Part shown: one piece after another, positions 32,901 through 61,489 of the stretch
Position numbering within the stretch: the first letter of the stretch is position 1
Layout: each line of letters starts with the position of its first letter
Assembly (NCBI GenBank): GCA_020137815.1
Contig: CM035357.1
Coordinates: 3,286,001 to 3,350,000 of the forward strand
Source of the DNA: Hormiphora californensis
Taxonomy: Eukaryota > Animalia > Ctenophora
Direction of reading: 5' to 3'
Length of the DNA stretch: 64,000 nucleotides
The notes under the pieces: generated by a model
Seen by the model: only the letters and a program-made list of their open reading frames with translations
The model's database searches: none
What the model was told of the DNA's origin: nothing
Program-made: the position numbers and the translations under genes

Positions 32901-35900
32901 TGCAAAATGTGGAGCGTCATGGATCTTAGCTCCGCATTCTGGCAAATACCACTACAGAAGACTCTAGGACGTCACGACTATATGGCTGAATTCGATGGGA
33001 TCCTGGAGGCACAAGGTGGTGCCCATGGGGCGAGAACAAGCCCAGCAGCCCTGCAGTCTTTAGCTGATAGGCTTTTCGGGGACCTGAGGCGAATGTTTGC
33101 GCGGTTTACTTGGATGATATAATATCAGGGCAGCCAATGCTGAGGTCATGATGGATAATCTGAACTAATATCGAGAGACTAAAATTGGTGGGCTCAAACT
33201 GAAACCCGGAAATGCGAGCTATTTCAACGGGAAGTCATGTTCTTGGGATGCAAACTAACAGAAGAAGGGCTGTACGCAAACCAAGAGAAAATAAAGGATC
33301 TTTTGGAGATGCCAGACCCGAAATCAAAGAAGGATGTCCAAAGAGTGTTGGGATTAGCTGGGTATTTTAGGGAGTTCGTACCTAAATTCGCAGAAAAAGC
33401 TAAAGCCCTAACCTCGCTACTCCAAGGATCGGAAAAGTTTGAATTTGGGGAGGAAGCTAAAAACAGCTTCGAGGCCGTGAAAACCGCCCTGACGAACCCG
33501 CCCTTGCTTGGTTTGGGCGGATCCTAACAAGACGCTCAATATTTTACGGACGCATCAGGATACTGTATGGGGTTCTGTTTGATGCAGGAATCAGACGATG
33601 GAAAAATGCATCCCATCCATTATGGATCTAAAGTATTCAACCCCTCACAATTACACTGGCCATCTTTCGTGAAAGAATTCTACGCTGCATACTGGGCGAT
33701 AACCCGATGAGATTCTATCTATTGGGAGAAGGTTTGTTCTGCAGACCGATTGCAAAGCCATGAGTTTCGGGACTTTCCTAAGAAATCAACGGCCAATGCT
33801 ATAATCCGATGGAGTATGGAATTTGTCGGAGTACGAGTTTATATCAAGTTCGTACCAGGGAAGAGAACGTGGTCTCTGATTTTCTGACAGACCAGCTTGC
33901 CTCAGTCTTCATCAGGCTATACGATTACATCAAGCAAGGAATCCAGGATGCAGTAGCGGGTAAAGAAAAGAAGATAAGTCTAAAGTTGTGAATCAAGTGA
34001 GTGAGGAAACAAAACCAACCCAAGTAATAGGAGACGAGGAATTCTTGAGAGAGTCTAAGGAAGACCCTACTTTTAAAAGTGTACGCAAGTGGATCAGAGA
34101 AGAGGAAAAAGCAGGAGATCCCAACATGCTACCCCCTCAGAACGACAATACTATAACAAGCTGAGTCGGCTGAAGATAGGGGATCAAGATATCATTGCAT
34201 CAGATAGGGTAACCCGGGACTCACAGAGTTCCGCTGGTTACTTGCGTACCAGAGTCACAAATAGTCAAAGTCATAGAGGCAAGCCACACAGTGGCTGGAG
34301 CACCCCAGTCGTCCGAGAAGACCGAAAGTAGAATAAGACAGAATTCTATTTTCCTAATATCAAGAAAAAGTACGATTGTTCTGCAAGACCTGCAGCGATT
34401 GCTTCAAGACTAACCAGTATCTACCGGAACAAACCCATACCGGAGTTGAAACCATACACATAAATACCCAGGCATGTGGTGTTAACATGGACGTGGTACA
34501 GATATCGAAAGGGGGAAGATTTCCCAAGGTGCTTACTATGGTTGACAAATTCACGAAATATGTAGTGTTCGTGCCCATCGCTAATGAGAAGGCTACCACC
34601 ATAGCGAAAGCCTTCTTGGATAACTACGTTTGCATCTGGGGACCGCCCCAGATCTTAGTAACTGATAATGCTGCGACTTTCAAAACGGCGGAGGTCATGA
34701 ATAACCTATATGTCTCTAGGATAGAGAAGAAGTACTGTGCACCGTACCATCCCCAAGGGAATGGAATAGCAGAGCGGTTCAATAAGGTGCTACTACATCT
34801 GTTACAGAAACTAGTGGGGGATAATCCCGGACAATGGAGGCAAGCACACCGCGACTACAATTAGCAGTAAACTCAGCGATAAACGGTCCACAGGGTATTC
34901 CTTTCCGGTTAATGACCGGAAGAGAGATGACTGATTGGATGATGTCATATTCCAGACCAGATCAACAAAGTTCTTTGAGAGTGAGCATCATCTGGCAAGT
35001 GACATGTACCAAGAACTTAGAAAGATATTCCGATTGGCGGGTAACAACCTAGAATTGACACACCGTCTTCAAAAAAGGATATACGACCGGAATAAACAAG
35101 CCGTGAGCCTAGCAGTGGGAGACAAAGTGATGATCTACAGGCCGAAAGACACATCTAATAATTACTACAAGTTAGTAACTAACTTTAAGGGTCCATACAT
35201 TATAATTGATGCTTGGGATCAGCACGATTTTCTGGTGCAAAGAATACGGATGGAAAGAAAAACGGGGGACTGTAAATACGTTGTTCATCGAAACCACTTA
35301 AGGAAGATCCCCGAGGAATGAGAGGACATCTAGGAGAACAAGAGCAGGAAACCGCAGAAGCAAGCATAACTGAGGAGGAAGAAACAGAACCTGAGGACGA
35401 CAGCGAGATAGAGGAAATGCTGCTGCGAGACGACGACGACGACGGTTGGATCGGAGGATATACGGAAATTACGGGGACAGGAGATCGAAGGGTAACAAGA
35501 GCTCAAGCGAAGGCAAATCAGGCTGTAACAGGAATGGGGCCTCAAAACATTACGAGAGACTCTGGAATATCAATGGGGGAAATAAGGACACCTCCGAATG
35601 ATAGGGAAAGAGACCACCCAAGAGACAATACAAGGGTCCCCCCACGAAACCATACAAAGTCCCCCCAAGAGAACACACCAGACTACCCAAGATACCACCC
35701 AAGATTCCACGGGAGAGAGCTGGGGAAAACACCCCAGTAGCGGATAACAATAGGACAGCCCGGGTGAAGGGTCAACGCAAATTTCAACCCCATGGCGAAC
35801 TCGAATACTGGAAGAGTTAACCCGGGCATTTGAGAAGAGTTGGGAGAAGAAGAAGAAGGAGGGGAAAATCTAAGAGAACAAACTGACCCACTCAGAGGAG

Positions 35901-38246
35901 AACTAGATCCCCGCTTAGAACAGAGAGAACGGATAGCGGAGTCTGTAGCAGAGCGGGTAATAGAGCCAAGGGAAAGGGTAGTCAGATACACCGAAGCACC
36001 GCGTGAGGTGGCTGGACAGTACCAACTACTAGGAGGACCAAGTCCAGGAAGAAGGAGAAGTCAACTAGGGAGCCCAAGTAGACAGCAGGACCTACAGACG
36101 GACCTGACGGATCGTGATCTATATACAACTGCAGCAAAAACCTTGGCATTAGGTACTTCCATAGGAAATGAGGATGTACATAGGGTATCAGACTCACAAC
36201 CAGATAGACTAGAACCACATAACAGAACACCGGAGGGAGAGCATCTCAAAAACAGACAAGGAACGCCAAGGAGAACAACCCCGGGGGATAGCCATAGACA
36301 GCAAATTCCTGACCAACGGGTGGAGAGACCGGGACCCTCCAATAGAACCCCTAACGCCTCGCCACCAGGAAAAAACGTGGTCAGAGGAGAAAGGGGAGGA
36401 ACCCAAGAAAGCTCTATTTGGACATCCCCCAGATAGCTCCTGGGAGAAGGACTAACAAATATTCCGAGGAAGATGTACAGAGAGAGGAAGAATTGTTAAG
36501 AATGGGGTTGGGTATACCAACAACCATATTTCCAGACGTACCTCCAGCTAGACAAATATGGAGGGATAAAATGAATGAAATGAGAGGGGGACGCCGAATT
36601 CTGATGGATGATCCCACCAACCATTCTACACCTGGAAAGATACCGAAAGGAAAGGAGAAAAGAAGCCACTCAGGAGGTACCACCCTCTCCCCAGGAGGGT
36701 ACAAATACAAGGGACTGAAACTCCGCTGAAAATCAAACCAGCAAGACCCCGGACAGAGCGTCCAATGGAGAATAGTCCAATGATTTCACGGGGTGAGGGC
36801 CACAGACGACCGTCATATGAAGAAGAAATAGATATGGAATTGGAACAACCAGGCCATCAGGCTAGAGAAGAACAAATGGACTGGCAGAGTCGAAACCTTA
36901 ACAAGACCGAGTACAGAGAGCGGACAGACCAAGGGCTAGATAGCACCATGGACACTACCAAGAGCAAGACAAGCAACGACTCGTTTGGAGAATACGAAAG
37001 AGCTCGAACCCCAACAAAGGGAACGAGGGTAGTCATGCAACCGCCTAAATTTGAAGCGCGACCACAGCCAAGAGAAGAGGAGCCTGATTGGCAACAAATA
37101 CAGGCGATAGCCCAAAGACTGAATACCATAGATAGAGAGAACGTGCTAAGAAGGAGCGACCATGCAGAGGACGAGGAAATGGAGGAAGTTTTAGAGACAG
37201 AGAATAGACAAGAAAGAGACTTCGTGACAGGGACGGATGAAACAAGACTACCTAGCCCCCCACCTAGGCGGTCTAAAAGATTGGAGAATAAGGCCAATAA
37301 ACTATAAGTATCGGCGTGAGCCTACTAATTGCCGCTGAAATATTGCTTACTATGATAAATATTATTTACCTAGAACTAATACAATATAATATAAAAATAA
37401 TGCTGAGAGTGCGTGTAAACTGTAGGAGAAATGTGTTAATTGTAATTCATTATAACTATAATTTTAATCGAAAAAGCCTTGCTGTTTGACTGGGATAGAG
37501 GGAATTACTAAGACGGAACATATAATACAGACAATGATATGGGGAGCATGAAGGGCAAATATAACAACGTGTTAACTAAGGCTGACATATGGTTCACATG
37601 CGGGAGAGTGGAGTTATAAGGACTTGGGGCCTGAATGAATGGTCGTGGGGACATATGATCTTCTCATGGTAAAACACAAAGCGGCCCTGCCATGGGGGAT
37701 ATATGACAGAGCAGCAGAATAAGGTTGGGTGTTGAATACACACACAGTGAAACAAACGCATAGAGTTAACCAAAACAAATCAAACAAAAGAATTTTTTAA
37801 ATATAGTTTCTAGAGTTTCTGCAGTAGCACAGGGTTGGGGTGAAACATTGGGGGGCGGGTAGGGGCAGGTCGGTCCCTCCTCCCGCAACAGTAGCCGCCC
37901 ACAAGGCCTGCCACGAACACCCCAGCCAACATCAGGGGAACCACATACCAGGGGATCCAATGGGGCCGGTAATGGGGAACCGGAGGAGCCGTGGTAGGAG
38001 AAATCCTGAGAACGGTCATATAAGGAGGAATAACTGGAAAGAGGGGAAACTAATGGAAACTAACACTAAAGATAACAATAACTTACGGGCTATTACACCC
38101 AGAGGTGTAACAAAGGGAGCATCCGGGGTCCTCGGGCGAACAAAACCCACACCCTGAGAGAGCCCCCACAAAACACTGCATGCTGAGGGAAGAAAAATAA
38201 CAGAGATGAGATAACAGCAACCAGGAGAAAGATAATGAAGAGAAAT

Positions 38247-38293
<47 letters not shown>

Positions 38294-38561
38294 TAGTAGA
38301 GATATAATAACTTACAGGGAGCAGAGAACCTCGGTCTGCAAGTTAGAATCATAACAAGTATACATATCTAGAAGGAAATATAAAAATAAAGGGAAAATCA
38401 AAAAAAAGGGAGGGGAGAGAAACATAGAAAAAGGAATTTAGCACAAAACAATGAGAAAGGAAGAGGCAAGGAATACAACGGTAGAAAATGAAATGTGAGC
38501 ACAAGCAGTAGAGATAAGAGATAAGAGGGACCGATGAATGCATGAGCAAAAAGCAGGAGAG

Positions 38562-38603
<42 letters not shown>

Positions 38604-41600
38604 ATGACTTACCGAATGATGTTCAAATACTCAAATCTCTCACCTCCCAATCTCTCACTTCGATAAAGTCCCTACTTGCTAATTAACACCCCTTCCCAAG
38701 AAACCACCTTACCAGACCTCATTGTTCTGAACCTCAAAACTGACTCGGATTATTTGCTTAGGTTTTAGAATCAGGAAGATATGGCACAGGCAGAATGAAA
38801 TTCACCAGGAAAAAATACCCGGAGATAACAGCTATGATTGAAGAGGCCCCACCACAACCGGAGGACATATTACAAGATGAACCGCCTCGAAGGGACCTGA
38901 ATGAGGTGGAAGCACTGAAAGAAGTACAGGAAGAACAACAGAAGAGGATACAGATAAAACATAACAGAAGGAGGAGAAAGGAAGATGACAGAATGATATG
39001 GAAATTACTGCGAGCCAACCCCAGTTTTACGATAAAATTAACAAGTAACTTGTCGGCAGCCAATAGATCTAAGGAATACCATGCAATCAAAGTAAAATTG
39101 ACTAAAAGATACAGAAAATTATTCAAAAAATGCCGCCAATTAAATAGTAAAGTAAATGGAAACACAGAAGAAATATTTGCTGCGATGATAGAGGGAGAAG
39201 AAATACCTGGAAGAATTGAGCTGTGTGAGAAATGAAACTATGTAAGAAGGGTAGATTGATATAAATAATGCCATTTCATAATTGTGCCTATGGCTGTTGT
39301 TTTATTAGATCCCTGAAACCCCATACAAACTCTTTCTAATAAACCACATACAAATTACTGAGTTACCCTATAGAACTTTCTGTAGCCGACAACGGCTACA
39401 GAAAGAGTTGCGGCAACAGGAGCAACAGCAGCAACAACCCCCACTAGGGGACATTCCGCCCCTAGGAGAGAACTATATAGAATGAGAGACAGAGTGAGAG
39501 AGATAAAGAACTATTAGAGAGAGGGAGAAAAATTATAAATAAGGGAGAGAGAAAGAACTATTAGAGAGAGGGAGAAAAATTATAAATAAGGGAGAGAGAA
39601 AGAACTATTAGAGAGAGAGACTATTAGAGAGAGAAAAAAAAAAAAAAAAAATGTATAGAGAGAAAGAGCTATATAGAGGGAGAGGGAGGCAGACAGTTAG
39701 CGTTCAGGCAGACAGTTACACCTCTTATACGAAGTTTTGTTGTTGTTGTATATATACATAATAAAATGGCAGGAGTTTTGCACGAATACAGGGTGCGCCG
39801 AGTGCCCAAGACGAAGATACAGTTGGGAAACAACGCCCCGATCACGATAGAGGAATTATCCGGAAAAGTGGACGAAGGGATCAACTCCTGGGAAGAAAGC
39901 GACTCCTGGAAAATATACCCGGACTTCACGGAAATAACTGACATTGACGGCGCCCGAAGCGCGTGGTACGAGTTCCTCTGGTTTTCCGGGTTTTTCACAG
40001 TGAGGCATTCCTTTTGCAGAATGATCAAAGGATCAGGAGATGTGATGATAAACCCGGAGTTGAAGACCTTTCCCCCTTTCACTCGCCCCCTTAGGGCTGA
40101 AGGATCAATCACAGGTTACAGATTCGATCTGGACACCCTGTTTACCCCGCCTGAGGGGGACGAAGAACCAGAGAAGTGCCACAATCTGCATGGACTCATC
40201 ATCCCATCAAGAAAATTGATGGGGATGTTCTTCGCCTGCGCCGCGGAATTTGTCCCTCTTAACCCAATGTTCATTGAAATGCAGCAGGACAATGAATATG
40301 AGCGAGGCTGCTAATACGGGGTGGAGGGCATGGAGGAGGGGGTGCAGGCGAGGGGGGTCCTGGGCAGTGGGCAATGGAGTGGAGTATACGGGTGAACAAC
40401 AATCTGTAATTACGACGAGCGGAGTACCAGGTAAACATCTAATAATAGTCGTCTGACATTTCGTGCTTCCTGCCCGCTATATTATGCAACGCTGATTGGC
40501 CACTTGTGTGGGTAAGCAATAACCCAGTGCTTTTTGTTGCTTGCTCATATATTGCGAGACCAACTTAGATATCAAAGTGTTGGGGAGATCACGTCCAGTA
40601 GATGTTTGAGTAGACATAGTGTCTGACGCTATAAGTGGACATGGGTCTGGTGAGAATAAAACAAGATCAACAAAGGAGAAAGGGTATAGTAGTACAGCCC
40701 AAACTAATCTGGTTTTGGAATGGACACAAGCCTGTAAAGGCACGCCGTGTTGTATTCACACTAAGGAGCGCGTGGATATAGGGTCGAGCCGGACAATTAT
40801 AACCCAGATATCAACAGGATGGCAACGATGGGTGTTTTATTGAATTACTAATTTGCGACGCGGTTACCCTTACATAAGTTGTCGCACGCGACATTTCAAA
40901 ACTATATGTGAGGGAGGTGATGTAATCACCGATATTACTATTTCCAATCACTGTCTTGGTCTTCAAATTCGACTACTCCTAACATCCAACATTCTACACA
41001 GGTCCCGACAGAACGACCAGACTAATTATCGATTCTAATAAACCTCTTATCATAGCAATGACATCCTACCTCGAACACAAAATGGGAACGGATTTGATAA
41101 AAGAGGAGAAGGTACAACAATATCGGATAAAGCAGGCGATGGGAGATCTGGAAGAGCTGCTGAGAGAAGGGAAATGGAGACACAGATTCTTTGGCTCCAC
41201 CCAGAACAGGACAGTGGTGAGAGGGAGCGACATAGATGTGCTAATATGGGCGGAGCAGAGCGCAACCGAGACGATGAGGAATCTGGACAGGAACAAAGGA
41301 AAAGCATTTAAATTCGTGAAAAAGGTGAACAAACTGGGAGTCTTGACACTCAGGCACGAGGCAGGAATCAAGATAGACTTTTGCTGTGCTACGGAGGACG
41401 ATAGGAAGGAAAGAGTTCTGTGGAACTCAAACCTTATTAAATGGTACACAGAGGAGAAATTGTTCCAGATAACAGTTAAATCAATAAAAACTCTGTTCGA
41501 AGGGACACCGGTGTTGCAGGCTTCCTTGGGAGGAGTATCCAACTACGCAATAACACTAGTCACGCGGGCTGTCTTAGAAGAAAATAGAATCGTTAAAGAG

Positions 41601-44600
41601 GCCCACCTAGAGGAAAGACGAAAAAGAAACAGTGAGCGACAGAATCTGGGGGAAACATCAGCCATAATGACGATGTTAAGATTTATGGGGGACAGCACGG
41701 AGGGAATGGATAATTGTACGATAGACTTGAGAAAAAACTTGGGAGAGAAAATAGAAAGAGGATCTCCCCAGATTAGAGATCCTTTTGAGGTAAAAGATTT
41801 ATACAGAACTCAAACGGATGGTGTAAGAGAGATCAGATGGAACATAGTCTCTTATTACGTACAACAACTACCAGTCAGGAGGTGGAGAGACGTCAAGAAG
41901 GATGTAGTAAACGCGTCAAAAGCTTGGTATGAGCTACCAAGAAAAACTAGAACAAGGGCATATTTTGATGTAGAAGAATTGAACGATAGAATATGAGCAA
42001 TTGAACAAGTGGTATTTCACATTAAATTACCCATGCTAATGTAAATAGGATTATATTGCTACGAAATTGAGATCCAACTGTTAGCGAAGGTGCGAAATTG
42101 TTCTTACACAATGGTATATTATTGAATTGCATTTACATTTATCGAAACGGGTTAACCACTGCACTCAACCCTATGTGTTTTTCTGTAACCTTATTACTCT
42201 TGTTATCGCTGCATCCTTGTCAACGATGGCCCTCTCGTATCATTGATTAAACATTATCTATTTCCAAAATCAGATGGATTTGGTGTCCTAAAATTCAACA
42301 CCGCCTAACATCCAACCTTCTAAATAGGTCCCAACAGGAAGGAAATGAACGGAAGGGAAGACGGAGTTGATCCGGAGTTTGTCAACGAAATATTACAGAT
42401 ATTACAGATATTAGCTTCGCTACCAATCCCGGATGTTTGTACTACTAGTAGTGCTAGTGAACGTGCTGTTGGCAAAGGCGAGGAAGGCAGACATCTAGAA
42501 GAGGAAAAAGTAGAGAAAGAACCAGAGAGATCCTGGGACGGAACAGTTCCTACTGATGAGGCCGAGGGTATTAACGAGAGGAAAGAAGAGCGTGATAAGG
42601 AGTGGAAGTGGAAGGAGGACCAAAGAAAAGAGAGAAAGCAAGATAGCGAGACAATGGAAGAACATAAAGCCCAATATGAAGAGACTATTGAGAAAGAGAG
42701 AGAGGAAAGAAACCGAAAAGTGAAAGAGAGAAAAAGAGAGAGAGATAGGATATACCAAGCCAATAAACGGGCAGAAAGAAGAGAGTATAGAAACCGATAC
42801 GGTATAGACATGATTAAGAGGAAGAAGGAGGGGCCGAAAACTAGGAATGCGGTGTACTCGAGAAGATACAGAGAAAAGAAAAAAGAGAGGCAAGAGATCA
42901 TGAAATATTTAGGGAAGGAGAGGGAGTGATGTTCTCACGTGAACATGTCGATGATAATTAATGTCCGAGATATCTTGAACCTCACACTTCCTGGTACTGG
43001 GTTCACTATCGCTATCCATAAAATGCAACGAGACTGTTGAGTGGTTAGGGCTGTAGAGGCCCGGTACTGCTGTTTCCTTCCGCACAAGACAGACTTTGAG
43101 GGACAACGCGGCCCTTATGGTAAACAGGTGAACTCCATCCTTACGTTCGCCATCTCTCTCTTCACCTTCTCGGAAACCTTCGACGTAGCGCCACCGAGAT
43201 TCTAAACACAAGAGTTGTTATTCGGACTTTGAAATTATGCGGAAGGAGGTCTTCCTGGACCAGGGCTTTTAAGAATTCAATGTGGCCCTGTAGTAATGAG
43301 TGGATGCTGATTTAGGGGTAATGAGGTATTGGTAAATACCCGAACTAAGCTATCTTGTTGAATTTAATGAGAGTATTTTGTATGTATATTGAATTTTCGT
43401 ACACTGTAAAGATACTATACGTTCCTCATACCAATGTGTTATTTGAAATAATTATCGAGAGTGATCATAACTCTTTATGCCTGAAGTAATCCATTACGAT
43501 CTAGATACTGCTGATTCCCAACCTATAACTCTACCCACACACTAGCTAGAGGGCATATAATGAATTGCACGAATGAAGTAGGGGAATGTGAGTTCCCTTG
43601 GGAAGTGATAAAGATAACAGGGATACTGTTGAGTGGTATATACCTGGCCTGCGTTTTATGTTATTGTCTACGAACCTGCACACACTAAGGACACGAGAGA
43701 TAAAGAGACTTTAGAAGATGTGGAAAAATACTGTTTAACGAGATTATGTGACCTAGATAGATGAAATTGTAAATAATATTGACAATAATTACAAATTAGT
43801 ACAACAATAAACGTCAAAGATTGTTATTGATTTCTAGATAATTAGAGAAGGAAACTAATATGTGTCTTTTCAATATAGCGAATGGAAGAAATAGAGAATA
43901 TGTATGGGCAGGCAACTCCGATAACCGATGTAACAAATCCATTCGTATGTGACCCTTACAATGTGGAAAGAATTGAACCTATGTCACCCAATTACGTGAT
44001 CGCGGGAACAGATAGACCAGTTTTACCCTGTATCCTTAGGAAAGATATGGAGGAGGAGACATCGAAAGCATTGAGCCGATTGACAGTGTCCTCCGTTCAC
44101 TCATCATGCAACTCCCACGATTCACTACAGGGGCCACAACCCTCTACGGAGTATATTGAAGCAGAGGAACCCATGGAGGAGGGGGTTGCGGGAGAGCAAA
44201 CTTTGCATAGCCCAGAGGTGGGAGAAGTGGCAACCTTATCCCTTTCAACTACTCCTTATATGGATATTAGCGCGGAGGTACTCCCTTGCACAGAGGAGGA
44301 TGGTGTAGAAAAGGGATACGAAATGGAAGATCTCCTTAAAGAGTTAACAGGGGAGATATTGGACTTGCAATGTCCACCTCTCCAGGGGACACCAGTAACC
44401 TTCAGTCCAACAGCCTCACCCAAACAACAAGAAGCAGGACCGGAAGTAAGTGAGGATTATCCGGACTGGTTGGTACAGCTCCTGGAAGCAAAGATTGAAC
44501 CAGAGGAAGGCTATTCGTCATCAAGAGATATGGAGTGGGATGGCACAGACGAACGGGGGAATGGTGATAATACATGTTGCCAGGGGACGTCGATGGAGAT

Positions 44601-47600
44601 GGACGAACCCAGAACAGAGAATTCGGTTCTGGTATTAGGGAAATGTCGGGAGGAAGCGAGGATGCTGGATTTAGACAAGTCGGCTGTGGGAAAAGTCTCA
44701 ACACGGGAGAGATGTTGGAACAAAACAGTATACGAGAGCAAAGTCTACAGCGAGCTCCAGGCCCACACCACGACAAATTCACAACCAACCTCACCGGAGT
44801 ACAAGAAGGGGGAAGATGGTCCAGAACGAGTACACAGGAGAAGCAACAGAGAGGGAGCAGAGATGGACAGACCACACTTGACATCGAAGGAATGGGTAGA
44901 TTGGATACTGTCACGAGAGGGGGAGGAAGAAGTCTACACATGGATAGACAACATTAGCGAAACAAGAATGGACAGATTCGCTAAGGAGATGGAGAGCATC
45001 ACCCTTGAGGAAGCAACAGAGGATGGAAGAAAAATGAAGAAAGAAAAACTAAACGTAGAGATCACAGGAATAAAGCAAGGTGCAAGGGTACCAGTGAAAG
45101 ATGTCGCGATGGAGAATAGCGACGATGAAACCCAACCGGGAATCAACACAGAGACGGAAATAATAGTGAACGTGGAAGGTAGAGCGGTTATATCGGTATC
45201 AGCCGAAATACTAAGAACATTGCAAGGATTTGAACAAAGCAATAAGCAGCAACGCCGAAAGAAACGCAATATTGCAGCTCAGAGGGAGAAAGGGCGATTA
45301 AGGACCATAAAATACAGAGTTCGGAGAAGGTGGAAAAAAGAAATTGGACTTTCAATGATGACTATGCTGCAATCCACACTAACGAACAATTGAGGAGAGA
45401 CAAAGAATTATAAATATACTATACAGTGAGGGTTTGTTGATATTATCAAATGGATTTTAATGAGTGAGTCGCCATGGTGACCATAGCGACCGTGTTATTG
45501 ACAGTGAAAGAACCACACGAGAGAACCGGTGAGGTATCAAGAGGCACATATATTGAAAGATTAAAATGTAAAGTAAAATATTGGAAGATTGAAATGAGTT
45601 GGGAGTTGTTTTACTGTTCAAAATATGAGAACATACACACACGCTGATCATACTAACACGAACCTATCCCTATAGGCATGACAGCTAGTATGATATTGAT
45701 CGTTGGGATGGCAACAACGATAATGGCAAAGGAGATGGTGAGTCCAAGGATATGCCAAGATAAAAGAGGAGGCGCCATCTACAGATTACCACCTCTGCTC
45801 AACTGCGATGAGGAGAAGTTTGACAGTTGGGAGATTAGACTATGGAAGAAAAATATAAAGGAGTATACTGGAAACATAAAGGGGGTGAAAATCATCCGCA
45901 GGACGTGCACCACCAAAGTGGGGTTCCTAGGCGACAAGGAGGTATTGAAGAAGAAGACATATGAAATACTCCCACAGGATACAGTGGACACCCTCTTTAG
46001 ACAAGGAAGCTGCGTTAACCCTAACGGATACGCTACATTGAGTTCGGGCGGAAAGGACTTTAAATGCCCAGGGGAATGGATGAAGACAAAGACAGCGGTA
46101 GTGATGGAGTGCTTACACTACGAAGGGTCTATAGTGAAACGTCATGGACAACCCGGGCGAACAGACCTTACAAGTTTCCATGGTTGCGCTTACGAAACGG
46201 GTAGGTGTAGGGCAAAAGATGGAATGTACCTAAGATGGACTCCAGAGGAGATTGAGAAGGAGGAGTACACCCTGCAGGGACGTTATTCGGCAGTAAAAAC
46301 CGGAGACCACATACTTATACCGAAATTAGCAATGGTACTAACCGTCTCAGAGGGTGAGGGCCCTTGGGAATCTGGTGTGTTCCGGATTGAGAGGATAAAA
46401 GAGGAAGGACCCGACAACGCAACGGTAAAAATGGCCGGGAATCCAGACGGAATAGAGGCATTGAGAGAAGAAATGAATGCAAGACTGGAATACCTGGCGG
46501 AAACAATGAAGTCACCGAGAGCAAAACTAGAATATTTGTGTGACATATGGAATCAGGTGAGGAAGAACGAGAGAGTTGTAGCGTCTCGAAGCCCTACGAA
46601 ATACGCCCAATTAAAGCTGGGGTATGATGAAATGATAGCGAAAACCACGGGGGAATACCTCATGGTTTACCCGTGCCAAAGAGTGAATGAATGGAAATGG
46701 GGGAACAAAACAAATCGATGTTGGGAAGAGGTACCTATACAGTATAAGCTATCAAAAGATACCAAATGGACAGAAGGATATCTGGATCCAAAAACAAACA
46801 TCATCACCAGAAGAGGAACAGAGTCACAGTGCCGAGGAAGAGGCATAGTGACTGAAATAGGAGATAAACTGGAAAGTCATACACAACATGGCGTACAAGA
46901 TATAAACACAACAAATGTGGTAACGCTGGACGACGCGATAAGTGGAATTCCAATGATCGATTTCCTAGACGCAGAATGGGCTTACGACGAGAGTGAGTTA
47001 ACTAATACAGAGTTGGATAGAATAACGGACAAAACAGATATCTCAAAACCAGGGGATGAGGAGCCTGAAATAAACAGGAATCCCCATGGAATGTGGAAAT
47101 TAGTGGGACTGAAAACACTATCCTGGGACGCGGTGCTAAACTGGGTGTGGCTATGGTTCACAAGAATAGTGTGCCTGATCTACACAACCCAGACAATCGG
47201 AAAATGGATGTGGAAGATAGGAGAAAACAAGTTGAGAGAGATTAAATGGAAAAAGCAACAACGAAAACGAAACGTTTGGTTCTCAAGACGACAACCACGG
47301 AGGAGAAGTGATATATCACGAGAACGAAGTGAAGACTCGGAGGATGAAGACGAGAGCTCAGAAGGAGAGGTCGTATGGGGACCTTAGTGAACTACGGATA
47401 GATAATGAATCCTAATAGTACATACAGAAACGAACTTTAATTTGTGAATATAGTGAAGCTAAATGAGTGAAATATTGAAGAATATGATTGTACAATGACA
47501 AATGCAAGTAAATGAATGTGAATAATCAGTTTGATCAGGGGACCCCGGCCGGACTTAACAACACCCTTGACCACACGTATTTCCATTCAAGGCCTATTAA

Positions 47601-50600
47601 GTCTCGAGTCAGTTCAAACCGCGAGAGTATACACTGTATGACTTTTCAGTATGTAGGGCAAACCCCCTAGATAAATAACTGACTCGAGGAGAAGCGTTGC
47701 GCAACGTAGGAACGCGGTAGCATACACTCAGAAAACCCTATCCCCTCCGAGTACTTCACTTACAAATACTAATCAACATCTCTTCATATATAGCAATGTA
47801 TTGGACAGTGATACTAATACTACTGGCATGGATAAACAAATCCAGGGCTGGTACGAACGACTATATGATGGATGAAATAATCATAGGAGAAGACACAGGA
47901 GTTTCCATGGAGGCAGTAGGATTCTTACTAGGACGAGATGGAAACCACTACCGGTCTATTTTCCTGAAATTACAAGACCCGACAGACAAGATGGACCTAT
48001 GCAATCAACTCTGTCCAGGGAGCGTGAACAAGGCGGTAACGCAATGGACAAGAGCCAGACAGATGACATGCAAGGTTGGACAGAAAAAGGGGAAGACATT
48101 CGCCCCAGAACTACGACGAATTCGACACGATGGAGGAATCCCGGCGAACGTATGTGTCAAGACATGTTTACTAGACCCATTCTGCTTCCAAGTTGGAGTA
48201 ACGGCTACTGAATGTGTACTGCGACCACGGGAGCTGACGGACGACGAGATGGAAGGGGCGACTACGGACTATGGAGAGTATGGGATGAAGTGTTTCGCCG
48301 AAGCCAATACGAAACAGGCGATGTGTGAAGCAGCAGCGAAAACAGCGGAGGAAACCCTTCTACTGGAACTAGATAGAGAGAACCGGAAATTTGTACAGAA
48401 AACATGGGATAACTTGAACGCACTCATACCGACAGAAAAGGGAATAAAGAAAAGGGGTGTGAAAGATTGGTTACTAGGCGGAGGAACTGGCCTAAGCCTA
48501 TTAACTGCTGGATATGACTTATGGGCCACAGTGAAACTGAAAAAACATGTGAATGAGATACAGCAGGAATTCGAAGCGTTCAAGAAAAACCAAACTAGAT
48601 TCGACAAGGAGCAGATCAAGTTCAATGGGAAAATTTTGGAAGTGAGTCAACATTTGGAACAGCGTATAGAAAGACAAGAATGCCGAAGCGACCAGGCGGT
48701 GTGGCATCTACTAAACCAACGGAGGCTTTCGGAATGGAAAGACTATATGCAACAACTGTATCGGGGAGTCCTAGCGGGGAGTCAGGTTGGGGAGATATCA
48801 CCCATTATATTTCCAAAGAAATACATGGAGAAACTGGTGAGAGATGACACCAGTCTGGCCAAAACAGCGTACAAAGAAAATATAGCACTAGCATACCGAC
48901 TTGGACTGCTGGCGGTAGTTAGCCACGGCCAGGGAGAAGGACAATTCGCTATTCACGTGGTGCTAAGTTTCCCAGACCTGGGAACACAAGGGGTCAAAGA
49001 AGTATACAGGGTACTGCAAACGGGGGTAGCTTTTAACGGCAGTCAATGTGGAAGGTTCGAACTACCATCTGTCGTGTATAAGGAAGAAAACAAATTTTAT
49101 GAAATGGAACAAGCAATTTGCGAAACAAAGGCCAACCTGCACCTATGCTGGGGAGGATCAGGAGCAGGTAGGAGAGAAGTGTCTTGCCTGTCAAACAAAG
49201 AGGAATGCAAAATTGGATTAGAGAAATGCAGTACTCAAGTTAGAGAGAACAGGGCAGGATTACAGGTACGAACCACAGAACAAGTTAGAGCAGCAATGTT
49301 AAAAACACCAGATGTGTGGAAAAGAGTGGACATGGGAAAGACAAGGACAAAATTCTTCAATAGATCACAATACGCAGGAGTGATGGTGGGAGAATACGAG
49401 AGAAGCATGGCACCGGAGAAACATGAAATCAGGGTCACAACATTACCAAACCCGGACCAGTGGAGGGAAATAATAAGTCAACGATGGGAGACTCACCAGA
49501 GAGAGAATATTAGTGATCTAGCAACGATAGTACACGAGCAGAAACAGATAGTAAAAGGGATAGTGGAATCCGGAAAGATAAGCGGTGGAATGAAACTAAC
49601 GGATTATTTGGCGATTGCAGCAATGGTGATGGCCACGTTAGGGACAGTAGGGCTAGTGACCTACCTGGTGGCCAAGCACAAGATGGCTAGACTCAGTGAC
49701 GACGAACAACGAGTGAGATATAAAGTTAAAAGAAAGAGAAAATGGGACGAGAATGAAATTGAAGAAGAGGTGAAAAGGGAATCAAAGAGGAGGAGCATAA
49801 CGTTAGACGATGAATCAGAAGGAGACGAGAACAAAGAGACGACACAATTTCTGGAGGACACAGAGGACAGCGAACCAGAGGCAGCATACCGAACAGCCCA
49901 ATTAGATTTGGATCAGACCCTGGAACAAATTCCACTACAAATACAACCAATCGCACAAAGTACACCTAGACGAGTGACACAAATTCGAGGACACCAATAC
50001 CAACCGACAACGATGACACAAGCACTAGCGATAGTACATCGAAAGAATACGACGAGGTGAAGTGATAAGACGAAAAGACGAAAAAGAGATAGTGAGACTA
50101 TGAACTACTATTTTAAACGTTTTAGAAGACAATATGTGAAATATAGAAGTTAAAATGAATATGAAAAGCTATAGACTGTGCTAAAAATATTAGAAATAAT
50201 AAAAAGAGATAAGTAAAAAGTGAAATTAGTAATATTGGAAGGAGCGGTGGAGCGGGCTTGGTTTGGCTTTCGTGAGGAGGGGGGTGTACGCGGATAAACC
50301 GCGGCAGAAACGGAGTAGTTAGACTAGACTACTCGACCTTTTTTCAAAGACTCAAACGCAGACGGCCATCTCCAGAATTACGGGGTGGGAGTGAACCAGA
50401 CTACTCGACCTTCGACCTTTTTTCAAAGACTCAAACGCGGACGGCTATCTCCAGAATTACGGGGTGGGAGTGTACGCGGTATCCCGCGGTGCATATCATG
50501 ACGAGACTCTCACCAGCGCTGAAGTCAGACTCTCTAACCGTTGGAGAGAGAAAGAGAGATCTAGATAGATCCTTCCCTAACCACAGCGGAGAGGGAGAGC

Positions 50601-52247
50601 TGTATGGACACTCTGTCTCTGCTGTGCGCACACTTGTCTCTGCTTGTTTACCTCATGACGTGGGTTAGCAGAGAGGGAGAGAACCATTATAGCGGATCAA
50701 CGCCTCGTGATGCCCATCATCACAGAGAGGGAGAGCCGATTATTGCGCACACTTGTCTCTAGGGGAAGAGATAGACGGCTAGGGACCGATTAAGTGTGAC
50801 GCCCAGCGTCACACTTATTTTGCATTCTCCGGAGACTATATAAGGGCGGGCTGTTAGCTGCCATTTGTCTTTTGTTAGAGACCCAACCCAGAGGAAACCC
50901 AGAGGAAACCCTTCTCAACCCGCCTACCTCAGAGCTATTGCCTAGCCATGCTCTCCGCTCCTCTTCCTGCCAAAAGCCCGTGTAGATTTACCTATATATA
51001 CTTATACATAGAAGTTAGCTAGATAGGATACCAGTGCTCTTATTACATTTAGTAGTGCCATTATTAGAGTGAGAATATATATAAGGGTATAGAACATATT
51101 GTAGTTGCTTATCTATTTATTACCCACAACCCTGTGTTTGATATTCTATCCTCGGGTAGAGATATACTGAGTACCATAGCGGAGCTATGGAGGGGGGTTA
51201 TGCGTGACTCAGTAGACGCGGACGTGCGCGCGTGAAAAGCACCCAATGTTAGCATTCGAGGCACACCCATTCTCTCCCAGGGACGAGTGTTGAGCGGGAT
51301 TTCGTTGAAGCCCCATCACAAATGCTGGAAAATTGGTGCTGGGAACCGGAGAGTCTGAAGTTGATGTCCGGGCACTACAAGGATGGCAGTGCCATTCCAG
51401 ATGAGCTGTTGTCCAAATTGGTGGCGAGCAAAGCCGCTAATGTTGCTACTAGCACATGCAGGTGAAGGTGTTTTTTGGATGATGTCCAAGGGTGCACAAT
51501 AACAACTTTCTCATGCTTCCCCATTGCAATATTTCCTACCCACCCATCTCTACTCAGTGTTTCTCTTCTTTGTCCTCTCACCCCCTTCAGGCAGCTACTA
51601 TTTCTTACCCCTTATTTTCAGACAGTTAGTGTTCGGGATGTTTGACCAAGATATCCACACCCGAGAGAGCGCTGATACGGCAGCTTGCTTTAGTGCCGCT
51701 CACGAGAAGGTTATGGGAACCCGGCACCAGCTGGAACCAACTTTGCGGCACAATTCGGGCACATGGCAGGTACAATTGTGATTCTTCTTTGTCTCAAGAT
51801 CTGATTTCTAGACAATGTCTAGTAGACATTCACAATTATTTTAATATCTCAGCCCACATAAACAAAGACTATCAGGCGGACCCTTAACCGTTCAGTCCTT
51901 CCTAAATCAATATTTAATAAAACACCTTATTACCCCATCTCTATCGACTATCTTCCATCCCCAGACCCCCTATATTACTACCCATATACTTCTTTCAATA
52001 CCCATCTCCATCAGGTGGTTACGATGCCCAGTACTACGGCTACATGTGGAGTGAAGTCTACTCAGACGACATGTTCCAAACCGTATTCAAGGACGCTGGT
52101 GTCCTCTCTCAAGAGGCAGGCCTGAAATACAGGACATCAATTCTTCAGCCTGGTGGTTCAATTGATGCGTTTGATATGCTGAGGAATATGCTGGGACGGG
52201 AGCCCAACAGTGAGGCATTCTTCAAAGCCAAAGGGTTTGCTGTGTAG
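20928..52247 (+). CDS. Thimet oligopeptidase / neurolysin (peptidase M3A); exons 20928-21116, 21263-21374, 21495-21615, 29535-29638, 29877-29969, 30164-30318, 30572-30694, 30823-30954, 31159-31609, 51281-51461, 51622-51769, 52015-52247
   Basis: [27 protein letters not shown], zinc motif [49 protein letters not shown] junctions. One 1-nt frameshift near 51720 (probable assembly error). THOP1 versus NLN orthology cannot be resolved. Confidence 0.92.
23464..26535 (-). CDS. LDL-receptor class A repeat-containing GPCR (GRL101/LGR-related 7TM, no obvious LRRs), intronless, antisense in peptidase intron 3
   Basis: Signal peptide; multiple LDLa motifs ([43 protein letters not shown]); 7TM with TDFCCWMPF and [12 protein letters not shown]. 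Confidence 0.9.
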   Translation of the reverse strand: MWRVYLFVLIAGHHCIVNCHANNCNITEIGPILTDMCSRENATGYTQFRCYNSNFTFDAYARFTMGHRTRYTLVTGLCPDDSAVYQACVVKYLFDDLWWGFNKYYKAQLFDSRPVCGRLCWNDVYRGYLYTDDQQCPGDKEIQEFTYTLPRSPQDTFPIRPSLVCDGKCDYWAPSWNCVDELDCNGLSYGVVIPGFGVYPTSVYLFGDTSHIPEFRNLTFEGTCESNEITVQLYPLSNRSRCFYLLKHAAVGVSYSHPYCINGHDQTNCSYSGFVAGQCKVNGFPTTISVHMLCVKDMPIVCDNKLDGECVTTDRHCRLHKHRLCDGHSDCSSDADEKLDVCSRLTNRKCKRIMTQVKTMLPIPYNWVQDGVVDCVGGEDEDFTSWERCGTGSTNRVQKDGKCKDVFLCRPEEKFTFLELEDVCSITSSACGGKVCGISNQAVKRSSVTETFDGDKRIIRSGWCHKGLETFRQLIGDRCTEKDFTHPFHEFFGKTQATQLILSTVKQDCRYFYGNQYVYQSCSGQCRNEKCPLQKPILHSSCGNIENVRYSIAQPGVTVVKKDRHGYHNNVFACNTNLCIPFSKVCDLVDDCGDGSDEENCENSVKCQGSSKYIVISQMCDGAIDCPDLSDECNSVCHRKSIENIGIMVCAMVMGIVGTVLSGAQIIRSLFFDEPSKKDSLFVNKVLSNLIALGDLLTSLYLLILVTFNWANQNSFCEEQLAWVSSFSCQSIGIISTTGTTITSLSMAVVSLFKLQGATRGLRYKRSKDISQKFKKKVFAMVVAIIFIAVSFAITPIISAFEDGFVNGLTYEGANQLFLGVMTKEKLLTIIQGYHGTRMITRSETGLSWARIRSIVSSMFTTDNGGIQHRELSFYGNDPVCLFKFFVLPDDPQVTFVWLYISLHFVCFLTVALCHTVIGVLVARSKPPEGSNLASKLNQKIMLVCATDFCCWMPFLICCALHTTEVFDMSPWYQVFSLAILPINAVINPLLYNIECFIAALDFCKKRLRIRFQVEPAIPANGN
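27940..28722. repeat. tRNA-derived repeat in inverted and tandem arrangement (tRNA-like units at ~28000-28074 minus, 28077-28152 plus, 28286-28362 plus)
   Basis: A box TAGCTTAGTGG, B box GGTTCAATTCC, acceptor-like stem GGGTTTG/CAAACCC, T-run downstream, non-canonical anticodon arm. 27940-28212 is a near-perfect palindrome. Confidence 0.75.
31624..32357 (+). repeat. 5' LTR (TGTAC...GTAGA)
   Basis: Near-identical to 50471-51216. TATA-like ctatataaggg at ~31985; palindrome taagtgtgacg-ccca-gcgtcacactta at 31940-31966. Confidence 0.95.
32360..32435 (-). tRNA. Full-length tRNA-Thr(TGT) sequence with encoded CCA, occupying and extending the LTR primer-binding site
   Basis: Reverse complement GTCTCCA TA GCTC AGAGGTTA GAGC A CTGGT CT-TGT-AA ACCAG GGGTC GCGAG TTCGATT CTCGC TGGGGGC T CCA forms a complete cloverleaf, 2 nt from the LTR end. 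Confidence 0.92.
32456..35321 (+). pseudogene. Gypsy pol (RT, RNase H, integrase with GPY/F), multiply frameshifted in this assembly
   Basis: [36 protein letters not shown] at 33107-33118, [15 protein letters not shown], RNase H FTDASG and [51 protein letters not shown]. Confidence 0.92.
35318..37307 (+). CDS. Low-complexity charged/Pro-rich extension downstream of integrase (four ORF fragments, probably one frameshifted reading frame)
   Basis: Abutting ORFs 35318, 35840, 36418 and 36765 with similar composition, ending PPPRRSKRL. Confidence 0.45.
38795..39235 (+). CDS. Element accessory ORF A, 146 aa, bZIP-like (NLSAANRSK plus three heptad leucines)
   Basis: Frame is open from the acceptor at 38760-38761; basic helix followed by L-x6-L-x6-L. 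Confidence 0.45.
   Translation: MKFTRKKYPEITAMIEEAPPQPEDILQDEPPRRDLNEVEALKEVQEEQQKRIQIKHNRRRRKEDDRMIWKLLRANPSFTIKLTSNLSAANRSKEYHAIKVKLTKRYRKLFKKCRQLNSKVNGNTEEIFAAMIEGEEIPGRIELCEK
39766..40314 (+). CDS. Element accessory ORF B, 182 aa, unknown globular protein
   Basis: Clean ATG-initiated ORF of normal complexity between AT-rich spacers; no motif recognised. Confidence 0.6.
   Translation: MAGVLHEYRVRRVPKTKIQLGNNAPITIEELSGKVDEGINSWEESDSWKIYPDFTEITDIDGARSAWYEFLWFSGFFTVRHSFCRMIKGSGDVMINPELKTFPPFTRPLRAEGSITGYRFDLDTLFTPPEGDEEPEKCHNLHGLIIPSRKLMGMFFACAAEFVPLNPMFIEMQQDNEYERGC
41058..41996 (+). CDS. Element-encoded terminal nucleotidyltransferase (Cid1/Trf4/GLD-2-type non-canonical poly(A)/(U) polymerase), 312 aa
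   Basis: Pol-beta motif FFGS-x9-SDID, third Asp in [13 protein letters not shown] helix, [10 protein letters not shown] (GGxSSY) and QIRDPFE (PAP-associated IEDPF). Confidence 0.85.
   Translation: MTSYLEHKMGTDLIKEEKVQQYRIKQAMGDLEELLREGKWRHRFFGSTQNRTVVRGSDIDVLIWAEQSATETMRNLDRNKGKAFKFVKKVNKLGVLTLRHEAGIKIDFCCATEDDRKERVLWNSNLIKWYTEEKLFQITVKSIKTLFEGTPVLQASLGGVSNYAITLVTRAVLEENRIVKEAHLEERRKRNSERQNLGETSAIMTMLRFMGDSTEGMDNCTIDLRKNLGEKIERGSPQIRDPFEVKDLYRTQTDGVREIRWNIVSYYVQQLPVRRWRDVKKDVVNASKAWYELPRKTRTRAYFDVEELNDRI
42345..42929 (+). CDS. Element accessory ORF, 194 aa, highly charged with a bZIP-basic-like C-terminus
   Basis: [16 protein letters not shown] fits the N-x7-R basic-region pattern; no zipper follows. 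Confidence 0.5.
   Translation: MNGREDGVDPEFVNEILQILQILASLPIPDVCTTSSASERAVGKGEEGRHLEEEKVEKEPERSWDGTVPTDEAEGINERKEERDKEWKWKEDQRKERKQDSETMEEHKAQYEETIEKEREERNRKVKERKRERDRIYQANKRAERREYRNRYGIDMIKRKKEGPKTRNAVYSRRYREKKKERQEIMKYLGKERE
43882..45393 (+). CDS. Element accessory ORF, 503 aa, acidic body with basic C-terminus (putative nuclear regulator)
   Basis: Long intact ORF with an E/D/P/S-rich N-terminal part and C-terminal [27 protein letters not shown]. Confidence 0.6.
   Translation: MEEIENMYGQATPITDVTNPFVCDPYNVERIEPMSPNYVIAGTDRPVLPCILRKDMEEETSKALSRLTVSSVHSSCNSHDSLQGPQPSTEYIEAEEPMEEGVAGEQTLHSPEVGEVATLSLSTTPYMDISAEVLPCTEEDGVEKGYEMEDLLKELTGEILDLQCPPLQGTPVTFSPTASPKQQEAGPEVSEDYPDWLVQLLEAKIEPEEGYSSSRDMEWDGTDERGNGDNTCCQGTSMEMDEPRTENSVLVLGKCREEARMLDLDKSAVGKVSTRERCWNKTVYESKVYSELQAHTTTNSQPTSPEYKKGEDGPERVHRRSNREGAEMDRPHLTSKEWVDWILSREGEEEVYTWIDNISETRMDRFAKEMESITLEEATEDGRKMKKEKLNVEITGIKQGARVPVKDVAMENSDDETQPGINTETEIIVNVEGRAVISVSAEILRTLQGFEQSNKQQRRKKRNIAAQREKGRLRTIKYRVRRRWKKEIGLSMMTMLQSTLTNN
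45678..47387 (+). CDS. Envelope 1: class III viral fusion glycoprotein-like (chuvirus G / herpes gB / rhabdovirus G type), 569 aa
   Basis: Signal peptide; [12 protein letters not shown] and [10 protein letters not shown] putative fusion loops; [12 protein letters not shown]; central helix [29 protein letters not shown]; [25 protein letters not shown]; Trp-rich C-terminal membrane segment and basic tail. Confidence 0.75.
   Translation: MTASMILIVGMATTIMAKEMVSPRICQDKRGGAIYRLPPLLNCDEEKFDSWEIRLWKKNIKEYTGNIKGVKIIRRTCTTKVGFLGDKEVLKKKTYEILPQDTVDTLFRQGSCVNPNGYATLSSGGKDFKCPGEWMKTKTAVVMECLHYEGSIVKRHGQPGRTDLTSFHGCAYETGRCRAKDGMYLRWTPEEIEKEEYTLQGRYSAVKTGDHILIPKLAMVLTVSEGEGPWESGVFRIERIKEEGPDNATVKMAGNPDGIEALREEMNARLEYLAETMKSPRAKLEYLCDIWNQVRKNERVVASRSPTKYAQLKLGYDEMIAKTTGEYLMVYPCQRVNEWKWGNKTNRCWEEVPIQYKLSKDTKWTEGYLDPKTNIITRRGTESQCRGRGIVTEIGDKLESHTQHGVQDINTTNVVTLDDAISGIPMIDFLDAEWAYDESELTNTELDRITDKTDISKPGDEEPEINRNPHGMWKLVGLKTLSWDAVLNWVWLWFTRIVCLIYTTQTIGKWMWKIGENKLREIKWKKQQRKRNVWFSRRQPRRRSDISRERSEDSEDEDESSEGEVVWGP
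47796..50060 (+). CDS. Envelope 2: class I F-type fusion glycoprotein (paramyxo/baculovirus F / errantivirus Env-like), 754 aa
   Basis: Signal peptide; basic cleavage site GIKKR followed by a Gly-rich hydrophobic peptide [19 protein letters not shown] and a heptad helix; Cys-rich middle; membrane-proximal heptad; [25 protein letters not shown]; long cytoplasmic tail. Confidence 0.8.
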   Translation: MYWTVILILLAWINKSRAGTNDYMMDEIIIGEDTGVSMEAVGFLLGRDGNHYRSIFLKLQDPTDKMDLCNQLCPGSVNKAVTQWTRARQMTCKVGQKKGKTFAPELRRIRHDGGIPANVCVKTCLLDPFCFQVGVTATECVLRPRELTDDEMEGATTDYGEYGMKCFAEANTKQAMCEAAAKTAEETLLLELDRENRKFVQKTWDNLNALIPTEKGIKKRGVKDWLLGGGTGLSLLTAGYDLWATVKLKKHVNEIQQEFEAFKKNQTRFDKEQIKFNGKILEVSQHLEQRIERQECRSDQAVWHLLNQRRLSEWKDYMQQLYRGVLAGSQVGEISPIIFPKKYMEKLVRDDTSLAKTAYKENIALAYRLGLLAVVSHGQGEGQFAIHVVLSFPDLGTQGVKEVYRVLQTGVAFNGSQCGRFELPSVVYKEENKFYEMEQAICETKANLHLCWGGSGAGRREVSCLSNKEECKIGLEKCSTQVRENRAGLQVRTTEQVRAAMLKTPDVWKRVDMGKTRTKFFNRSQYAGVMVGEYERSMAPEKHEIRVTTLPNPDQWREIISQRWETHQRENISDLATIVHEQKQIVKGIVESGKISGGMKLTDYLAIAAMVMATLGTVGLVTYLVAKHKMARLSDDEQRVRYKVKRKRKWDENEIEEEVKRESKRRSITLDDESEGDENKETTQFLEDTEDSEPEAAYRTAQLDLDQTLEQIPLQIQPIAQSTPRRVTQIRGHQYQPTTMTQALAIVHRKNTTR
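50471..51216 (+). repeat. 3' LTR
   Basis: Follows the PPT and precedes the CGCG TSD; differs from the 5' LTR mostly by small indels. Confidence 0.95.
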
Positions 52248-60636: not shown

Positions 60637-61489
60637 TATTATGCACTGTTGTTTTGTAGTAGACGATGAACAATACAAAACGTACATATAATCATACATG
60701 ATGTGCAAATGATATTTTTTGTTTTTGATTTATTTTTACGCGTGTGTTTGCTGTCAATTGATTACCTCTATCTCTCTCTTTATGTTGTGTAACTTATCTT
60801 AATAATTGTTCCACCGATTTGTTAAATTCGAGAGTTTTTGAGGTTTTTTGACCGCAGTCGAACACGTACCATCATATATCACTTTTAAATCCAGCTACGG
60901 AGCAGGATAGGTTATCCTCATGTAACCCCGTTCTGGCCATTATGGTTCTTGATGAATCACGGACATGTTAAAATCGTTGATATTGATTGATAGAAGAACC
61001 ACGCACGCGTCCGAGAGTACGTGAAAAATTAGTTTCCTGGGTATAATCATCATTCAATATTTTCATAAACCACTGTTTTATGAAATCAGAATCGCAAAAT
61101 CACATACATAGTTCTGGTATTGGTATTTGACAATATTGAATGGAGCATCAACTGCTTGATATATATATCCTTTTTCTCTGTAACTCCCCTCCCCTTCAAC
61201 TATAGCGAGTGGGATAGTGCAAGTTCAAAAAATCACATACTGTGAGCGGTTAGTAACTGCCCATCCCCTTTCAGATCTTGTTATGTGGTTTTTGTAGTTT
61301 ACTAGCAGTCCGATATATCCTCAGACTCTCTCGTTGCGAGGCCGCGACAATTCCACTGAGTCTACTGGACAGTGAGGAATCTGCCACTTTAAATCATGTA
61401 GCACCGGTCCCTAGACTTGCTCCCCCTTTTTTAGCCATGTTTTTGTTCAAGCCCGGTTCAAACCCCCCTTCCTTGGCCTAACATCGCGC

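Follow-up and report, generated by a model that had tools for sequence, protein, structure and literature searches.

How does a retroelement that carries a long row of separate genes obtain an mRNA for each of them? This question is raised by a locus of the ctenophore Hormiphora californensis (NCBI GenBank assembly GCA_020137815.1, contig CM035357.1, positions 3,286,001 to 3,350,000 of the forward strand), a stretch of 64,000 nucleotides (nt) which is called the window in the following and to which all coordinates refer. It contains a long terminal repeat (LTR) element of 19,593 nt (31624-51216) whose 3′ part, the cassette, holds seven long open reading frames (ORFs) on the same strand between 38795 and 50060, all uninterrupted (the interruption check covered four of them). 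An earlier note, made from the sequence alone, had seen a branch point and a 3′ splice acceptor just before the start codons of the accessory and env ORFs. It had proposed that one LTR transcript is resolved like an operon into at least six mRNAs, possibly by the spliced-leader (SL) trans-splicing machinery of the host, by which gene capture would become easy. The array of these acceptors is a real and highly non-random feature of an unusual element. The ORFs of the cassette are the following:

38795..39235, + strand: basic ORF of 146 amino acids (aa), no family in Pfam
39766..40314, + strand: 182-aa ORF, no Pfam family, best Atlas score 0.79 (a lead only), TATA-like run at 39749
41058..41996, + strand: 312-aa TENT-like nucleotidyltransferase (terminal uridylyltransferase, TUTase, or non-canonical poly(A) polymerase), from profile and alignment
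42345..42929, + strand: charged ORF of 194 aa whose C-terminus is basic, no family in Pfam
43560..43688, + strand: 42-aa ORF with one hydrophobic segment, no family
43882..45393, + strand: acidic ORF of 503 aa whose C-terminus is basic, no family in Pfam
45678..47387, + strand: 569-aa env-like protein of glycoprotein B (gB) type (class III), PF24664 Monjiviricetes_fusion with E 6.1e-12, above the cut-off
47796..50060, + strand: 754-aa probable F-type (class I) env with PAN/apple-like domain (alignment A2)

Acceptor signals ahead of the ORFs

Six of the seven long ORFs are preceded by a CTRAY branch motif and then a YAG just 5′ of the ATG. At these six sites, the distance from the branch A to the AG is 16-20 nt and the AG-free zones measure 26-52 nt. 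All six branch and acceptor sites quoted in the earlier note were found where it had placed them; a second site ahead of ORF 41058 and a weaker one preceding the short ORF 43560 were added:

38740..38761, + strand: branch and TAG acceptor (1), AG 33 nt before the ATG at 38795
40979..41001, + strand: branch and CAG acceptor (2a), second site ahead of ORF 41058
41035..41055, + strand: branch and TAG acceptor (2b), AG 2 nt before the ATG at 41058
42305..42327, + strand: branch and TAG acceptor (3), AG 17 nt before the ATG at 42345
43524..43545, + strand: weaker acceptor with TATAAC branch and TAG, ahead of ORF 43560
43855..43878, + strand: branch and TAG acceptor (4), AG 3 nt before the ATG at 43882
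45653..45675, + strand: branch and TAG acceptor (5), AG 2 nt before the ATG at 45678
47769..47793, + strand: branch and TAG acceptor (6), AG 2 nt before the ATG at 47796

For the shuffle test, the 200 nt before each of the seven ATGs were subjected to 3000 dinucleotide shuffles each. The chance of such a signal was 0.001-0.04 per ORF, giving P = 2.3e-10 for at least six of seven, a value somewhat overstated because the motif was chosen after the sites had been seen. For a control, the YAG nearest to each ATG was taken without any branch criterion. A YAG was found for six of the seven ORFs and CTRAY accompanied all six, while the background at YAGs is 10.8% of 528 on the + strand and 6.0% of 553 on the - strand. 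Between 38700 and 50100, the + strand contains eight strict sites, seven in spacers ahead of ORFs and one within env; among the 68 internal in-frame ATGs, just 2 are preceded by such an acceptor site. Judged from these sequence statistics, the acceptors are very likely real, as the earlier note had held, and we are highly confident that they are used.

For comparison with the host, 18 predicted splice sites were hand-read from the Tfb4, M3 and EamA genes of the window. CTRAY is present at 3 of 18 host intron acceptors vs 6/6 in the element (Fisher p 6e-4), the acceptor triplet is TAG in 5 of 18 vs 6/7, and the mean pyrimidine content is 0.79 vs 0.65 for the element acceptors. Within the element, the sites at 41001 and 42327 are paralogues (81% over 53 nt, E 1e-9). 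Because they are unlike host acceptors and the element itself contains a duplicated module, the acceptors look element-made and not imported with host genes. The earlier suggestion that host machinery made gene capture easy is thereby supported only in part, since the element has branch-strong, pyrimidine-poor signals that differ from those of the host.

Scanning of viral and metagenome contigs (alignments A1, A2) yielded no genomic DNA of relatives. Two diverged F-type relatives have N-terminal read-through peptides that would fit the motif, P0013 strictly (0.0066 vs a mean of 0.0012) and P0024 in a relaxed form only; this is too weak to count.

Expression of the cassette

In the reading that we favor, a long RNA, likely LTR-driven, would span the 3′ cassette, the branch-plus-AG signals would act as 3′ splice sites with the host SL trans-spliced at each, and every gene would be given a separate capped mRNA in the manner of eukaryotic operons. 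Strong branch motifs combined with poor pyrimidine tracts would lead to partial use of the sites and leave some unspliced genomic RNA, an expectation taken over from retroviral splicing. We infer that one transcript covers the whole cassette. Resolution of a polycistronic element RNA by the SL is the best guess, because Pleurobrachiidae trans-splice many mRNAs and an acceptor-like YAG lies at most 21 nt before the first ATG in four of eight host genes of the window (background 13%, p 0.014); its chance is put slightly below even. The host genes outside this 21-nt limit are M3, one gene for a G-protein-coupled receptor (GPCR), Tfb4, with its acceptor at 42 nt, and one gene with a doubtful start. 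At least 56% of the Iso-Seq reads of Hormiphora were reported to carry its SL, which is without AUG (PMC8527503, in the part available). A piece of this SL was not matched anywhere in the window when up to three mismatches were allowed. Each cassette ORF supplies its own ATG and the env-like ORFs also their own N-terminal hydrophobic leader; in Drosophila errantiviruses, the env start is described as coming from an upstream exon (PMC12992720, available text). Only one host-like donor lies on the + strand from pol to the first acceptor, vs 5.9 in shuffles (P 0.013), and the 150 nt 3′ of most cassette stops are AT-rich, like host 3′-untranslated regions (UTRs).

Several points weigh against SL resolution. 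The donor matrix was built from no more than the 18 hand-read host sites, and the scarcity of donors proves little because the gag-leader region, in which the donors of errantiviruses are found, is absent from this copy. The R-U5 region has no donor, with only 0.2 expected from shuffles. Within the cassette, donor-like sites are not depleted (13 vs 10.3 in shuffles), and a donor above threshold is present in four of the seven spacers, which could turn trans- into cis-splicing. The spacers measure 190-687 nt from stop to acceptor and are longer than typical operon gaps, given as ~100 nt in C. elegans and ~30 nt in Oikopleura, figures that exclude the 3′ UTR (PMC7986045, available part). ORF 39766 is without an acceptor motif upstream, as the earlier note had said. 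The site at 38761, to which the same note had ascribed the opening of the 38795 frame, is present, and the first AUG downstream of it belongs to a five-codon upstream ORF at 38781 and not to the frame itself. An AG ahead of an ATG equally fits an ordinary 5′-UTR intron, and no paper documenting operons in ctenophores was found in the literature searched.

The same acceptors might be served by cis-splicing as in complex retroviruses, where a single donor in the leader or at the start of gag, lost here, would be paired by alternative splicing with each of the acceptors, and every mRNA would end in the 3′ LTR. As far as the available text of the sources goes, this is the usual route to env (PMC12992720; Tor3a, PMC4402516) and typical for the ORF3s of rotifer elements (PMC5408684). 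The pyrimidine-poor acceptors would suit competing cis-splice sites, and the putative donor region is absent from this copy. We consider cis-splicing unlikely, though a serious contender, as R-U5 contains no host-like donor (its best site scores 4.4, less than any of the 18 host donors), few such donors precede the first acceptor and all ORFs are complete, ATG included. In hosts with an SL, as known from C. elegans, an unpaired acceptor also tends toward trans-splicing. Distinctly unlikely is an individual promoter for each gene, placed in the spacer, with the acceptor serving to remove a short outron or 5′-UTR intron; the cassette would then be a cluster of separate units and no operon. The env of Oikopleura Tor3b/4b provides a precedent for it (PMC4402516, available text); the spacers are long enough, with donor-like sites in four of seven, ORF 39766 has a TATA-like run and is without an acceptor, and AATAAA or ATTAAA follows six of eight stops (a count made without comparison with chance). 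This polyadenylation signal may mean little, as AATAAA is present in only one of the eight host genes of the window; moreover, the genomic RNA would be cut at internal poly(A) sites, and a strict TATA is absent from four of the five spacers between 40315 and 47795.

That the motifs are unused, either relics imported with captured host genes or products of chance, would agree with the defective look of the 5′ half and with the cellular type of the TENT-like gene. We regard this as very improbable, given the shuffle P of ~2e-10, a motif at both env-like genes although these are not host genes, the greater uniformity of the element sites in CTRAY compared with host sites and the duplication of one acceptor module within the element. 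Overall, the indirect evidence tips modestly toward trans-splicing; the SL as 5′ partner, in preference to an exon of the element, has about an even chance, and a mixed use of splicing modes, as in Cer1 of C. elegans, is possible. A wider reading is doubtful and put forward tentatively: a giant ctenophore retrovirus-like family may run a viral operon resolved by the SL, in which one RNA would give seven or eight mRNAs, including those for a class I and an unrelated class III fusion protein and an RNA-tailing enzyme, and to which genes would have been added by duplicating a 50-nt acceptor module.

Genes of the cassette

The product of ORF 41058 is, by its profile, a TUTase/poly(A)-polymerase-like protein encoded by a gene of cellular type. 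The Pfam match to NTP_transf_2 stayed below the cut-off (E 0.0014) and the Atlas score was 0.97, while a profile from alignment A3 matched TUT4 (E 1.4e-15) and also TUT7 and Cid1. This alignment contains a Pol-beta nucleotidyltransferase core with GS, DxD and a third acidic residue as well as a C-terminal lobe; a single-sequence search of the PDB gave no match. As a speculation, the putative enzyme could tail or protect RNAs of the element or act on small RNAs.

The identification of env genes in the earlier note held for ORF 45678, whose Pfam match was given above and whose best PDB match is a herpesvirus gB (E 0.057), and holds weakly for ORF 47796. The latter probably encodes an F-type env, to judge from its sequence and model: the protein combines a cleavage-like basic site with a hydrophobic peptide, a long helix and, near residue 607, a transmembrane stretch, features mostly common to seven relatives (alignment A2). 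It has no Pfam match. The assignment remains at probable because the model is poor (predicted local distance difference test, pLDDT, 39) and the fold match weak, with respiratory syncytial virus (RSV) F as best Foldseek hit at E 6.6e-3 and none at 1e-3. Two env-like genes, probably of different fusion classes, stand in tandem at 45678-50060. The gB-like and F-like relatives P0002 and P0007 both list a contig of 11,944 nt, which hints that the two-env layout recurs beyond this copy.

The closest proteins are gene models of Pleurobrachia bachei, matched at 98% (41058), 85% (45678) and 93% (47796). These models are genome-derived and are not expression evidence (PMC8527503, in the part available). 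All three ORFs with relatives are uninterrupted and two equal the P. bachei models in length. No exact-sequence match to 10 proteins of the window was found in the protein collection. The basic C-terminal stretches of ORFs 42345 and 43882 recall bZIP basic regions by eye, without support from Pfam. The LTR carries TGACG/TGACTCA motifs.

Structure of the element and insertion site

A retroelement context, presupposed by the earlier note, was confirmed by an LTR pair, a target-site duplication and a pol region for reverse transcriptase (RT), RNase H as well as integrase:

31624..32357, + strand: 5′ LTR, TATA at 31986
32360..32435, - strand (antisense to the element): whole tRNA-Thr(TGT) gene-like sequence at the primer-binding position (ARAGORN)
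32460..35321, + strand: interrupted pol, RVT_1 E 2.8e-6, RT_RNaseH E 1.3e-14, rve E 5.8e-12
35276..37307, + strand: acidic and Pro/Arg-rich interrupted frames after pol, at least 5 interruptions, no family
37810..38722, - strand: predicted antisense gene, short exons separated by GT-AG introns, exon model by eye
50471..51216, + strand: 3′ LTR, polypurine run directly upstream

The LTRs agree at 97.4% over 756 nt and have the termini TG...GA, not TG...CA. Both ends of the element are flanked by the 4-bp target-site duplication CGCG, and the insertion lies in a run of alternating C and G (31610-31623, 51217-51280). Drosophila ZAM reportedly prefers similar target sites. The insertion point is a 74-nt intron of the host peptidase M3 gene, on the same strand as the element; the flanking exons cover profile positions 119-263 upstream and 267-324 downstream and are consecutive. 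By the element this intron was enlarged to 19.7 kb, which places the element acceptors 3′ of a host donor. In place of a short primer-binding site, a complete tRNA-Thr complement follows the 5′ LTR, and RT fragments start immediately 3′ of the primer site. Just 5′ of the 3′ LTR (50270-50475), a second polypurine run, an LTR-start-like sequence and a 64-nt tandem duplication were observed.

The domains of pol are in Ty3/gypsy order, and at least 14 interruptions are needed to cross it. For gag and protease, no CCHC or D[ST]G motif was found in the three + frames, which is read as a loss in this copy. The region of the 5′ LTR and pol (31624-37307) is rich in small insertions and deletions (indels), while the 3′ ORFs are clean. 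About 9 small deletions are found in the 5′ LTR vs 1 in the 3′ LTR, with only 3 mismatches; since the 5′ LTR is rich in indels and poor in mismatches, the breakage of the 5′ half may reflect assembly error as much as decay. Either the consensus quality is poor in the 5′ half or the copy belongs to a non-autonomous lineage that retains only the cassette. By its sequence, the element appears to be a defective or poorly assembled errantivirus-like copy, resembling an errantivirus with a complex accessory region. Because gag was not found and pol is interrupted, it stands outside the published definition of intact gag-pol-env errantiviruses.

The predicted antisense gene at 37810-38722 looks, from its sequence, like a captured or element-made gene for a membrane protein. 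Its model contains GTAAG donors at 38713, ~38612, 38315 and 38086 with CT-rich tracts, and a Cys-rich exon ending in a CxxxxCN-like motif is followed by an exon with stalk, transmembrane stretch and tail. The two largest exons had no Pfam match; the Cys-rich exon presumably resembles three-finger domains. Because the gene is antisense, its introns would survive retrotransposition.

Host genes and repeats in the window

Upstream of the element (9-21116), the host genes ABC, PUF, Tfb4 and M3 are tightly packed on one strand in an operon-like layout, with ~230 nt from the Tfb4 stop to the M3 start. Between the ABC and PUF genes, 408 nt separate stop and acceptor. Two GPCR ORFs are nested on the same strand within Tfb4 introns, and an LDLa gene lies antisense in an M3 intron. 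Many nested same-strand genes were reported for Hormiphora (PMC8527503, available part). Three tRNA-like copies at 27940-28490, tRNA-Thr by ARAGORN, are probably a tRNA-derived repeat; two of them form a 108-nt inverted repeat. At 61418-62116, each unit of a 71-nt tandem repeat contains a CTAAC branch motif and a CAG acceptor-like end.

Relevance

If SL resolution applies, it would add to cis-splicing and internal promoters a third route by which LTR elements express many genes, and the coding capacity of retroelements would be linked to whether their host trans-splices. Whichever mechanism applies, the errantivirus survey of Chary and Hayashi (PMC13524379) is extended by an LTR element that combines env genes of two classes with a TUTase-like gene and that comes from the animal phylum which branched off earliest.

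Comparison with known systems

Precedents are known singly, namely SL1 splicing in Cer1, extra ORFs in rotifer elements and the errantiviruses of ctenophores; their combination was not found in print. Neither per-ORF acceptors nor an SL-resolved polycistronic RNA in a ctenophore LTR element was found in the literature searched, the coverage of which left out most subscription papers. Complex retroviruses such as HIV, HTLV and the foamy viruses have several acceptors upstream of accessory genes and env. They are Retroviridae with overlapping multi-exon genes and no SL host, whereas the element described here has its pol domains in Ty3/gypsy order.

A close likeness exists to the ctenophore Ty3/gypsy errantiviruses of the survey (PMC13524379), which share LTRs, an RT-RNase H-integrase pol, an env of F or herpes simplex virus (HSV)/gB type and the ctenophore host; ORF 45678 also resembles, by eye, the Ctenophora gB segments shown there. 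In its available text, the survey has nine ctenophore entries with one env type each (6 F, 3 gB), excluded LTR pairs more than 14 kb apart and does not mention splicing in the main text. Since this limit is below its size, the present element would be missed: it measures 19.6 kb even without gag and differs further in having a pair of env-like genes as well as separate acceptors for five or six accessory ORFs.

Cer1 of C. elegans is likewise a gypsy element in an SL host (PMC3315495, PMC10309623). Its spliced accessory mRNA takes SL1, while the 8-kb genomic RNA skips the site (PMC3315495). As far as these sources are available, Cer1 has a single SL site, located near the 5′ end, and yields one product by cis-splicing; here, six to eight acceptor-led genes stand in a row. 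The Tor elements of Oikopleura are env-bearing LTR elements of a trans-splicing animal, but their single env is obtained by cis-splicing (Tor3a) or from an internal promoter (Tor3b/4b) (PMC4402516, available text), so that Tor, from another SL host, speaks against SL resolution.

Large retroelements with captured enzymatic or accessory ORFs are also found in the rotifer Vesta, Juno and TelKA, the Terminons, the planarian Burro and foamy-like endogenous retroviruses of fish (PMC5408684, PMC6431247). The rotifer LTR elements have one ORF3 each, Burro encodes a polyprotein and Terminons are Penelope-like, and the available portions of these papers do not describe an array of acceptors per gene. 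In the arrangement of the genes, the cassette can be set beside the SL operons of nematodes and tunicates, which also consist of same-strand genes with an acceptor near each ATG; in the available text on these operons, they comprise chromosomal genes with short gaps, whereas the present array belongs to a mobile LTR element and has longer spacers (PMC7986045).

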